64,000 nt of DNA from the sequence record MH445380.1; one strand, given 5' to 3'. Below the pieces are notes generated by a model. The model was not told where the DNA came from, did no database searches, and saw only the letters and a program-made list of their open reading frames with translations. The translations under genes and the position numbers were made by a program. Within the stretch, counting starts at the first letter, position 1. The number at the start of each line of letters is the position of its first letter. Origin of the DNA: Escherichia phage P1. Below, in pieces: positions 45,053 to 47,578 of the stretch.

Positions 45053-45682
45053 ATGAACATACCACCCAGGGCGACTAGGACTGTTTTTTGTGTCGGTAGC
45101 GGTCCGTCACTCACTCGTGAGGACTGTGCTGCTATAGAAAAAACTGGCTGTTCAATCATCGCGGTTAACAATTCCTGGCAGATGTTCGATGACATTTATG
45201 CCTTATACGCCGGTGATTTGTCATGGTGGAAGCAATACGGATCCACCATACCGGGAGGGAAATTCCGCAAAGTGACAGCCAACCTGGCGGCGGCGAAATC
45301 ATTTTCGTTGGAGTACAGGCGATATTGTGGACCGGCGGAAGGGGTAAATAGCGGCGCGCAGGCTATCAGTCTGGCTGCTGAATCAGGGGCTGAAGTAGTT
45401 GTATTAGTCGGCTATGACTGTTCTCTGCAAAACGGCCTTCATTGGCATGGCGCGCACCCTCAAGCCCTACGGAATCCAACGCAGGTGTCTATTTCAAAAT
45501 GGCAACAGCAGTTCCTGGATACCCGCAAAAAACACGCAGATTTACATATTTTGAATGCAAGTAGGAGCAGTGCAATTCAATGTTTCCCAAGAATAAATTT
45601 AGAGGCAGTGATCGCGTTATTATCGTCGGCAGTGGCCCAAGCGCCGCAAACTTTGTTGCGCCGCGCGGAGTGCCGATTATAG
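45053..45682 (+). CDS. MptE/DUF115-like protein (paralog 1)
   Basis: GSGPS...IIAVN motif near the N-terminus; start uncertain (45020 or 45053). Confidence 0.4.
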   Translation: MNIPPRATRTVFCVGSGPSLTREDCAAIEKTGCSIIAVNNSWQMFDDIYALYAGDLSWWKQYGSTIPGGKFRKVTANLAAAKSFSLEYRRYCGPAEGVNSGAQAISLAAESGAEVVVLVGYDCSLQNGLHWHGAHPQALRNPTQVSISKWQQQFLDTRKKHADLHILNASRSSAIQCFPRINLEAVIALLSSAVAQAPQTLLRRAECRL

Positions 45683-46206
45683 CGGTCAATGGGGCCATCG
45701 ACTGGCTGAACCGCGCTTCTTATTTTTTCACACTTGATCCATCGGCAGACAATATGCGGCGCGTTGGTCGTGGCCGCCGTCGCCGTGGTGTTTGTTATTG
45801 CATGGCACTACCCGATGTTAAAGAACGTGAAGTCAGAGACGGCGTTCTGTGCTTCCGTCGTGTGGCTGAACGTGGCATGGAGCCAAAAAATATGAATTCT
45901 CCCGAGTGGTGGGCGTGGCGCTGGTCCGCACATTTCGGACTTTGCGAAGATGAGAATGAAATTGCCAGCGGCAATAGTGCATATGGCGCTCTGAACCTGG
46001 CTTTCCATATCGGATTCAAACATGTCGCCCTGGTGGGCGTTGACGCTACACAAGAACCACGCGTTCACTCCGGCGGCACGCCAAAAAATCTAAGTCACCT
46101 GCCTTTGTTATTCCAGTCTGCGCGTGAACAGATTGACGTTGTTTCATGCGGGAAAATGGGAGGTATTCCGCAGATGACTCTTAAAGAATGGCTGAAGAAT
46201 ACATGA
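45580..46206 (+). CDS. MptE/DUF115-like protein (paralog 2)
   Basis: 208-aa ORF with the same GSGPS...IIAVNGA motif; its 5' end overlaps paralog 1 by ~100 nt in another frame. Confidence 0.4.
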
Positions 46207-46880
46207 TGGCACCCACAATTTATCACCGTATCGACGGTACCAAATACAGGAATGTCTGGGTTGTTGGTGATCTGCATGGTTGCTACACCAGACTGATGTC
46301 CGAACTCCATCGTGTGGATTTTGACCCGGCGCAGGATTTACTGATATCGGTCGGCGACCTTATTGATCGCGGTACTGAAAATGTCGAATGTCTGGAACTA
46401 TTGCAGATGCCCTGGTTCAGGGCAGTGATGGGGAACCATGAGCGGCTGATGATTGATGCGTTAAGTCCAGATGGCAACGTGAATAACTGGCTAATGAATG
46501 GCGGACAATGGTTCTTCATGCTGGACACTGATCAGGAAATATTAGCCTGGGCGCTGGTGGAGCTGGTAAAGCGTCTGCCCTATATCATTGAGTTGAACAC
46601 CGGGCAAGAAACTATCGTTATAGCCCATGCCGACTATCCGGATAATGAATACCAATTCGGTAAGGAGGTGCCGCTTTTCAACGTTGTCTGGGCGCGCGAG
46701 CGTATCAGTGATTCGATGGATGATATTGGTGGCGAAATTTCGGGCGCAGATCGTTTTATCTTTGGTCACACTCCGGTGAAAAGCCCGAAGACATTCTGGA
46801 ATCAGCAGTATATCGACACTGGTGCCGTATTTTGCGGAAACCTGACATTGATGAAAGTGAAAGGTGATGGTGCAGCATGA
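46188..46880 (+). CDS. ppp: Ser/Thr protein phosphatase (lambda-PPase / PrpA-like metallophosphoesterase)
   Basis: 230-aa ORF with GDLHG, GDLIDRG and GNHE metallophosphatase motifs. Confidence 0.85.
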
Positions 46881-47578
46881 AGATTGCTTTAGTTTTTCGC
46901 TCTGGTGGTGACTATAACGCTTCCGATGTGCAGTGGCTGGTTAATCAACTGCCAAAAGGCTATGAAATTATTTGCCTGACAGACCTGAAGCGTTTACATG
47001 TACCTGGCGTCAAAGTTGTCCCATTGATCAACCAGTGGCAAAAGTGCCGTGGCTGGTGGGCGAAAATCGAGTTGTTCCGACCGGATATAACAGATGATCT
47101 GTTCTATCTGGATTTGGACACAGTTATTGCCGGTGATATACGCCCAATCCTTGAGAATCCACCAACCAGCTTCACCATGCTTAGGGATTTTTACCATCCA
47201 CAATATCGTGGTAGCGGTGCCCTGTGGATACCAAATAGTGTAAAAGCGCATATCTGGAGTTCATTCTGGCAAGATCCGGAAGGTTGGATTTCTCGTTGTG
47301 TCACTACTGAGTGCTGGGGTGATCAGGGGTTCTTACGGAAGGTTATGGGCGATGATACACCAGCATTTCAGGATCTGTATCCAGGATGGTTTGTAAGTTA
47401 CAAGGCCGATGTTGTGGAACCTGGTTCAAAATATGCGAGCGCGCGTTACTCCAGGGGGAATGGGGCATTACCAAAGGACTGCCGAATAATCTTTTTCCAC
47501 GGCAAACCGCGACCTCGCGAAGTGTCAGAGGATTGGCTTCCCCTTATCAGCTCATTTTTTGAGCGAGAATCAGAATAA
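46877..47578 (+). CDS. Hypothetical protein with DxD-like motif
   Basis: 233-aa ORF coupled to ppp; [11 protein letters not shown] might be a nucleotide-sugar transferase DxD. Confidence 0.45.

Follow-up and report, generated by a model that had tools for sequence, protein, structure and literature searches.

What is encoded by the compact gene cluster at positions 45053-47578 of this phage P1 DNA? The window analysed here, a stretch of 64,000 nucleotides from the Escherichia phage P1 record MH445380.1, carries at this place four open reading frames (ORFs). The original prediction had described them as two overlapping paralogs, a protein phosphatase and a protein with a nucleotide-sugar motif, and had suggested a modification activity for the cluster. 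All four are present as described, and they correspond to the annotated P1 genes pmgO, pmgP, ppp and pmgQ. Annotation of these genes dates back to the publication of the P1 genome, and PHROGs and RefSeq already label the cluster 'alpha-2,3-sialyltransferase' and 'glycosyltransferase'; no functional study of pmgO, pmgP or pmgQ was found in the literature searched. The comparisons reported below indicate that pmgO, pmgP and pmgQ (O, P and Q, also for their homologs) form a functionally linked unit, with ppp outside it. We tentatively propose that this unit could glycosylate a structural protein of the phage.

Fold and paralogy of PmgO and PmgP

PmgO and PmgP both contain the GSGPS...IIAVN motif from which a pair of MptE/DUF115-like paralogs had been predicted. 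When the two sequences were compared with BLASTP, only a 36-residue stretch around this motif aligned (E = 0.003). Comparison of family profiles with hhalign, using 40 homologs of PmgO and 47 of PmgP, gave a probability of 98% and an E-value of 2.2e-13 over 163 columns. PmgO and PmgP are true but old paralogs. Both are single-domain proteins, of 209-220 residues for PmgO and 208 residues for PmgP. The conserved domain of PmgO extends from about 45074 to 45622, and its C-terminal tail past LEAVIA is not conserved. As a start of pmgO, Met12 (45053), which had been used in the original prediction, is as plausible as 45020.

Searches of the PDB with the PmgO and PmgP sequences alone gave no match. 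AlphaFold models computed from the family alignments were confident, with predicted local distance difference test (pLDDT) values of 90.3 for PmgO and 94.9 for PmgP. For both models, the best fold match was the flagellin glycosyltransferase Maf, followed by the archaeal pyrophosphokinase MptE (score about 12) and the Campylobacter sialyltransferase Cst-I (about 11). SteA and thiamine pyrophosphokinases (8-10) and animal sialyltransferases of glycosyltransferase (GT) family GT29 (8-9) came lower. The Rossmann-like fold common to Maf, MptE and GT42 is present in the two models. A fold search of BFVD returned only uncharacterised MptE-like viral proteins. At the level of profiles, several PmgO and PmgP homologs have a precomputed match to the Pfam MptE-like family PF01973, and P0051, a natural O-P fusion homolog described below, passes the cutoff of this family with 44.6 bits. 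The fold shared by sialyltransferases and Maf uses keto-sugars activated by cytidine monophosphate (CMP).

The two families have the motifs GSGPS, AVN, NSG/GNS and GYD/GVD in common. Invariant in both paralogs are the proline of GSGPS, the asparagine of AVN, the aspartate after the third strand, the serine of NSG/GNS, and the glycine and aspartate of GYD/GVD. Further invariant positions are specific to one family: HWHGxH, N168 and R171 in PmgO, R94, H173 and W204 in PmgP. Because each family has its own set of invariant residues, PmgO and PmgP both look like working enzymes, neither being a decayed copy of the other. The common motifs can also be aligned with those of Cst-II (GSGPS with GNGPS, AVN with RCN, NSG with TSG, GYD with GID); the corresponding hhalign probabilities, obtained with a Cst-II sequence entered by hand, were not significant (5% for PmgO, 4.6% for PmgP).

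These results affect database annotation. The label 'alpha-2,3-sialyltransferase' is misleading, and so is 'norphogenetic protein', a typing error of the P1 record that is now found in hundreds of entries. PmgP is often called from the pmgO stop codon, resulting in proteins of 173-183 residues that lack the N-terminal nucleotide-binding GSGPS loop (P0094, P0095; 7486-8130 in contig L084). In phage phiNP (L092, OR565852), the region 3926-5535 carries a pmgO without annotation.

The pmgO/pmgP overlap and the linkage of O, P and Q

The original prediction stated an overlap of about 100 nucleotides in different frames between the two paralogous genes; its length is 103 nucleotides (Table 1). Overlapping O-P pairs were found at 11 loci, some of which are near-identical to each other, in P1-like phage-plasmids at 40-70% protein identity and in a lambdoid prophage of Citrobacter rodentium. 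The overlap measures 40-109 nucleotides, depending on where the pmgO frame reaches a stop codon. pmgP is always in the -1 frame, and its ATG always lies on the codons of a conserved (Q/K/T/A)-Cys of PmgO. One frame of the overlap codes for the last helix of PmgO and the -1 frame for the N-terminus of PmgP up to the GSGPS loop. The overlap-encoded tail of PmgO is not conserved, whereas the N-terminus of PmgP with its GSGPS loop is.

It is hardly credible that this overlap is an artefact or a relic, that is, a sequencing frameshift, a decaying duplicate or a site of programmed -1 frameshifting at A_AAT_TTA (45595-45601). Re-sequencing had been suggested as a check on the first of these possibilities. 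The same sequence is present in 18 phage records (at least 95% identity) and in more than 80 IMG/VR contigs, and so many independent identical sequences exclude a sequencing error. A decayed duplication, also raised in the original prediction, is contradicted by two intact and strongly constrained ORFs, each with many invariant residues, and by the conservation of the overlap, its frame and the position of the ATG down to 40-60% protein identity. Programmed frameshifting, which would fuse PmgO to PmgP, agrees with the -1 frame of pmgP and with the presence of a canonical slippery heptamer in the pmgO frame within the overlap, and a natural in-frame O-P fusion exists. However, the heptamer is lost in close relatives, which have AAT CTG (L143, L156, L162) or AAC CTG (L151) instead, and a -1 shift at this site would remove the conserved last helix of PmgO. 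By our own estimate, about 13% of stretches of 34 codons would contain an in-frame slippery heptamer by chance, and A_AAT_TTA is probably such a chance occurrence. Programmed frameshifting was rejected on the grounds that the heptamer is not conserved and that the helix would be lost. Overall, the comparison of genomes argues that the overlap is a conserved feature, neither an error nor a sign of decay. In a contig of 248 kb (L089), a GIY-YIG homing-endonuclease-like gene (7552-8166, minus strand) separates O from P, which elsewhere overlap.

In a podovirus-like contig, a PmgO-like domain and a PmgP-like domain follow each other in frame within a single protein of 376 residues, P0051. A PmgQ homolog (40% identity) follows this gene. 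As a Rosetta-stone case, the natural O-P fusion is evidence that PmgO and PmgP act together. Other fusions combine tandem MptE-like domains, or an MptE-like domain with a TylF-type sugar O-methyltransferase; fusions of PmgO-like domains to Ig-like domains were also seen, with weak support.

The third gene of the unit codes for PmgQ, in which the sequence YLDLDTV had been noted as a possible DxD motif. This suggestion is well supported. D79 and D81 are invariant in 33 PmgQ homologs, as are H208, G209 and P213, and the DxD and C-terminal FHGxPRP motifs align to the GT8 DxD and H-x-x-G-x-x-K-P-W type metal-binding motifs. Against the PDB, the profile built from the 33 homologs matched the Skp1 alpha-galactosyltransferase 6MW5 (E = 2.6e-7, query residues 53-210), and also the bacterial GT8 enzyme 5GVV (E = 3.6e-3) and glycogenins (E about 1e-2). 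With hhalign, the PmgQ family aligned to E. coli WaaJ over 155 columns (probability 51%, E = 1.6e-4), and the DxD and C-terminal motifs were aligned. No Pfam family was matched at E-values up to 0.1, Glyco_transf_8 included, and no NCBIfam model was matched; PHROG 1962, 'glycosyltransferase', was matched with an E-value of 4.9e-128. PmgQ is, as predicted from its motifs and profile, a GT8-type DxD glycosyltransferase.

We then considered the neighbourhood of PmgQ homologs outside P1. An earlier IMG/VR scan with a P1-led alignment gave P1 copies only, and the PmgQ profile identified 50 non-P1 loci. The commonest architecture, found at 28 of the 50, is an O-like gene directly followed by Q, and the remaining loci include O-P-Q or a duplicated Q. 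The complete O-P-Q order occurs in lambdoid, P1-like, jumbo-like and podovirus-like contigs. A PmgQ homolog follows O-P in four settings, namely the podovirus-like contig, the lambdoid prophage, a distant P1 relative (L087) and the 248-kb contig. Since this synteny is kept in unrelated phages and a natural O-P fusion exists, O, P and Q are, by genomic association, functionally linked. To this extent, the general idea of a phage-encoded modification activity is supported for three genes; ppp and dbn, discussed below, fall outside the unit.

The module is located among structural genes. A major capsid gene lies upstream on the same strand at 29 of the 50 non-P1 Q loci, although at least 3 kb of upstream sequence is available for only 32 of the 50; in 26 of the 29 cases the capsid gene is within 219-1566 nucleotides. 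The T7-like contig L182 shows a tightly packed order of portal, scaffold, capsid, a 92-residue ORF, O, Q, a 204-residue ORF and a nozzle-like gene. In the set of loci led by O, modules consisting of O only, or of O with accessory genes (a methyltransferase, a GT2-like protein and a 280-residue family), sit between head-completion and HK97 gp10-like genes. In lambdoid prophages and in the fusion-bearing contig, the module is found between the lysis cassette and the packaging/head genes. The families are large, with 7,589 clusters at 50% identity for the PmgO profile (E-values up to 1e-3) and at least 600 PmgQ loci in IMG/VR. A search with PADLOC defence models gave nothing relevant.

The 280-residue family, called X, is the commonest direct neighbour of PmgO homologs (39 loci, for example 7561-8403 in L085), and an O-X fusion is present in L153 (1542-2999). 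Its invariants are GLGD, RTQ.KN, RPAT.R.EW, GEL and a C-terminal Cys/His cluster. From an impression of the motifs it was considered as a GT9 heptosyltransferase; this is not supported, as no significant Pfam or PDB match was found and hhalign against E. coli WaaC gave a probability of 0.1%.

The lambda-type phosphatase of the cluster was recognised correctly. Ppp aligns end to end with the lambda phosphatase 1G5B (residues 11-229, E = 1.5e-94), scores 59.3 bits with PF00149 Metallophos (cutoff 21.5) and contains the metal-binding motifs GDLHG, GDLIDRG and GNHE; with the NCBIfam PrpA equivalog model it reaches 272, under the cutoff of 326. The lambda gene is located in the nin region, and ppp in the P1 pmg operon. 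Between P and Q, ppp is found only in the closest P1 relatives (L143, L151, L156, L162). It is missing from seven other O-P-Q loci (L003, L084, L087, L089, L124, L136, L145), and phage D6 carries ppp (89% DNA identity) without O, P or Q. As most O-P-Q loci lack ppp and D6 carries it alone, the gene is best read, from this distribution, as an independently acquired insertion between pmgP and pmgQ, and it was rejected as a member of the module.

The original prediction also drew attention to a GT-B-like glycosyltransferase further upstream, which is the P1 gene dbn (Table 1). The similarity exists but it is weak: the match to GT-B/Glycos_transf_1 is under the cutoff (E = 3e-5), with an E-x7-E-like segment. 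dbn belongs to a separate operon about 6 kb away, past oppositely oriented tail genes, and a dbn homolog was found 5 kb downstream of O-P-Q only in the relative L124. Given the different operon and no consistent linkage, membership of dbn in the module is not supported. It is conceivable that P1 has a fourth sugar transferase in Dbn. The GT4-like C-terminal segment of Dbn is THPESLGLTVLEAAMCG, and dbn is non-essential.

A possible role in virion glycosylation and the alternatives

We propose that a late-expressed, dispensable PmgO/PmgP/PmgQ module glycosylates a structural protein of the phage, and we give this proposal a probability of about 0.45. The three proteins would be a soluble cytoplasmic set of enzymes, working in lytic growth only. 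PmgO and PmgP would act as co-evolving transferases of the Maf/GT42 fold, probably in one complex, and their translation would be coupled through the conserved overlap. The sugar that they transfer would be an acidic keto-sugar taken from a donor activated by CMP; in E. coli, this donor would most likely be CMP-3-deoxy-D-manno-octulosonate (CMP-Kdo). PmgQ would be a metal-dependent retaining transferase adding a hexose from a uridine diphosphate (UDP)-sugar. The acceptor would most likely be a capsid or tail protein, so that virions would carry a small glycan.

Several observations bear on this scheme. No hydrophobic segment of membrane-spanning length was found in any of the proteins. Given the late promoter LPpmgL and the C1 operator (Table 1), the operon comprising pmgO to ppp and pmgQ is shut off in the lysogen and switched on during lytic growth. 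Single knockouts of pmgO, pmgP, ppp and pmgQ gave normal plaques (PMC9024508), and the four genes were non-essential in CRISPR interference (CRISPRi) knock-downs. In the P1-like IMG/VR contig L242 (6016-8324), about 1.7 kb interrupts pmgP, and phage phi456 (OR339795) has InsB of IS1 within the module region; both cases fit a dispensable module.

A clue to the donor comes from relatives of P1. Two of those with O-P-Q, both distant P1-like phage-plasmids, carry a cytidylyltransferase gene of the KdsB type a few kb downstream (L087, 11658-12425; L145, 11174-11929). The enzyme of L087 is a clear KdsB, or CMP-Kdo synthetase, with 270 bits for TIGR00466 (cutoff 155) and a far lower score for the pseudaminic-acid enzyme PseF. 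E. coli K-12 makes CMP-Kdo and, to our knowledge, no CMP-sialic acid. From the kdsB linkage, the fold typical of enzymes using CMP-keto-sugars and the sugar pool of K-12, we infer that CMP-Kdo is the most plausible donor for PmgO and PmgP. The KdsB genes sit after pmgS, roughly where P1 has pap, coding for a HAD-type phosphatase (49215-49721 in the window), and in L087 a Pap homolog directly follows the KdsB gene. In view of this match in position and of the adjacency in L087, Pap may be a KdsC-type sugar-phosphate phosphatase rather than an 'acid phosphatase'.

Other facts weigh against the proposal. PmgO and PmgP score 23.6 and 21.2 bits with PF01973 and do not reach the gathering cutoff of 34.6. 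GT8 and WaaZ-like families are typical of the assembly of the lipopolysaccharide (LPS) core, which is also what P1 uses as its receptor. kdsB accompanies only two of the O-P-Q lineages examined. The late-operon position is also compatible with morons, and the module's neighbours in P1 itself are genes of the tail and baseplate, with the capsid gene elsewhere. A text search for 'glycos' in the study of the P1 virion proteome retrieved no mention of glycosylation (PMC9024508).

The original prediction had named DNA, a virion protein and the host envelope as possible targets. Genomic context favours a virion protein over the envelope, with DNA the least likely of the three. The main rival, which we consider unlikely, is a remodelling of the LPS core. 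PmgO and PmgP would add an extra Kdo to the inner core, as WaaZ does, and PmgQ would act on the outer core like WaaO or WaaJ; the P1 receptor, the terminal core glucose, would be masked or truncated in lytic growth, limiting superinfection or the loss of progeny on debris. The LPS core is where P1 adsorbs, and its outer part is truncated when WaaZ is overexpressed. Over the DxD and C-terminal motifs, PmgQ can be aligned with the LPS enzyme WaaJ, and kdsB in two relatives would suit this function as well. The similarity to WaaZ itself is faint: PmgP reaches 12 bits with TIGR04437 (cutoff 200, E = 0.099), PmgO has no match to this model, the fusion homolog P0051 has a faint match to PF27901 WaaZ_KDO_III, and hhalign of the PmgO and PmgP families with E. 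coli WaaZ gave a pairwise E-value of about 0.002 at an insignificant probability of 12-15%, a result that does not help the virion proposal either. Moreover, the genes are repressed in lysogens and driven by lytic/late promoters, so that LPS made earlier would stay on the surface of the cell. Dozens of phages have the module between capsid and tail genes and not in conversion loci, and the hosts of the environmental T7-like and HK97-like contigs are diverse. The knockouts without a plaquing phenotype also count against LPS remodelling, but they discriminate weakly.

The modelled fold of PmgO and PmgP also allows a pyrophosphokinase function. They would then be enzymes of the MptE or thiamine pyrophosphokinase type acting on a small compound, for instance a signal or the precursor of a cofactor, with Ppp and Pap as partner phosphatases. 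The Pfam family is named after MptE and the two phosphatase genes are nearby in P1. Nevertheless, Maf was the top match of PmgO and of PmgP, and two CAZy families of sialyltransferases were matched too. The partners constantly seen are KdsB, a sugar O-methyltransferase, and GT8 and other transferases of nucleotide sugars, and Ppp is not conserved with the module; we regard this function as improbable. Still less can be said for the addition of a sugar to a base of the phage DNA as a guard against restriction, an idea of the original prediction which has its parallel in phage glycosyltransferases acting on DNA, such as those of T-even phages. Ordinary restriction enzymes are routinely used to cut P1 DNA. 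Family searches revealed no base-hypermodification genes (hydroxymethylase, DNA-binding domain) in the module, the genomic context is structural and not replicative, and the anti-restriction activity of P1 was unchanged in the pmgO, pmgP, ppp and pmgQ knockouts (PMC9024508).

Organisation of the locus and comparison with known systems

Between 44000 and 48000, the window is 100% identical to MH422554 and MH445381 and 98.3% identical to NC_005856, and at least 80% of this region is covered in 18 phage records. The features are collected in Table 1.

Table 1. Features of the pmg region and dbn, in window coordinates
Feature	Position	Strand	Description and source
LPpmgL	43923..43941	+	Late promoter; P1 annotation mapped to the window, 1 mismatch in 19 nt; divergent region in common with LP26 (baseplate/tail operon); drives pmgL and downstream genes
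pmgM	44278-44856		VRR-NUC-type nuclease-like; PF08774, E = 3e-4, slightly under cutoff
PpmgN	44824-44850		Predicted promoter; P1 annotation
Oppp (Op83)	44863..44879	-	C1 repressor operator, adjoins PpmgN; P1 annotation, 1 mismatch in 17 nt
pmgN	44923..45078	+	51-residue ORF, overlaps the pmgO start; only in close P1 relatives
pmgO	45020..45682	+	Maf/MptE-fold (GT42-like) putative CMP-sugar glycosyltransferase
pmgP	45580..46206	+	Second, distantly paralogous Maf/MptE-fold putative glycosyltransferase
pmgO/pmgP overlap	45580..45682	+	103 nt; pmgP in -1 frame relative to pmgO
ppp	46188..46880	+	Ortholog of lambda NinI-type Mn-dependent Ser/Thr phosphatase
pmgQ	46877..47578	+	GT8-like retaining GT-A glycosyltransferase
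OpmgRa	47580..47596	+	C1 operator with promoter PpmgR; P1 annotation, sequence identical in the window
dbn	38087-39085		ban operon (P1 annotation)

The promoter and operator sites of the P1 annotation are kept in the window with 0-1 mismatches. Directly after pmgQ, a C1 operator pair leads to the next unit, pmgR-pmgS, and marks the downstream end of the module. The coupling of start and stop codons noted in the original prediction is real. The pmgP stop codon TGA (46204-46206) overlaps an in-frame ATG of ppp at 46203, the annotated ppp ATG being 46188, and the ATGA at 46877-46880 is common to the ppp stop and the pmgQ start.

Upstream of pmgO lie pmgL, pmgM and pmgN. Every P1-like relative examined has pmgM ahead of O-P-Q, whereas phages of other types do not; pmgM probably has nothing to do with the glycosylation module. 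The profile search gave no family match for pmgN. This gene was scored as essential in the CRISPRi screen and as non-essential by knockout, and the discrepancy may be due to polarity, with dCas12a binding close to the promoter and operator.

In the literature searched, we did not find the O/P paralogy with its conserved -1 overlap, the O-(P)-Q arrangement as a cross-lineage unit beside capsid genes, the finding that Ppp stands outside the module or the link to KdsB. Few phages are used as much in genetics as P1, yet some dozen 'pmg' genes are still without an assigned function, and three of them now have a testable hypothesis. If it is correct, pmgO, pmgP and pmgQ, classically listed as 'putative morphogenetic' genes, would constitute the first known case of a virion-glycosylation system in a coliphage, and Kdo on the particle surface could affect stability, adsorption and immune recognition. 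In a broader form, which we hold to be possible but doubtful, P1 and thousands of tailed phages of Gram-negative bacteria would glycosylate their own capsid or tail proteins by means of a Maf-like and GT8-like module using host CMP-Kdo. Glycosylated virions of such phages would bear on phage therapy, through recognition and clearance by the immune system (an effect shown for mycobacteriophages), and on the reading of unexplained densities in cryo-electron microscopy. If the target were instead the LPS core, the module would represent a new receptor-masking strategy of the lytic phase.

Mycobacteriophages provide the only well-documented precedent for virion glycosylation of tailed phages in the literature searched. 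According to the summary in PMC12363180, glycosyltransferases of phages Che8, Corndog and Myrna decorate capsid and tail-tube proteins (Freeman et al. 2023) and are dispensable for growth. In that case glycosylation was shown by experiment, whereas for P1 it is proposed from the genes. The hosts are of the Gram-positive type, the enzymes are probably unrelated, and the PMC12363180 summary mentions no Maf-like component.

Among the enzymes compared, the GT8 members glycogenin, 6MW5 and WaaJ/WaaO have in common with PmgQ the DxD motif and a C-terminal H-x-G-x-x-(K/R)-P motif, whereas PmgQ, with 233 residues, is shorter and shows invariant GDQ and SYK motifs of its own. WaaZ, the GT73 Kdo III transferase of the E. 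coli and Salmonella LPS core, is a small, soluble and CMP-Kdo-dependent enzyme, as PmgO and PmgP may be, but PmgO and PmgP, which the scores do not place in GT73, are encoded in phage structural operons and not in waa loci. The likeness of PmgO and PmgP to the GT42 enzymes Cst-I and Cst-II (2P56) and to GT29 is a fold-level annotation only. Maf (PF01973/DUF115, 5MU5) is a protein of about 600 residues with extra helical domains that are thought to bind flagellin, and its genes are part of the flagellar glycosylation island. In contrast, PmgO and PmgP are single domains of about 200 residues with 16-19% identity to Maf, under the Pfam cutoff, and their genes belong to a phage late operon. By analogy, we propose that the P1 module would act on the virion as Maf acts on flagellin.

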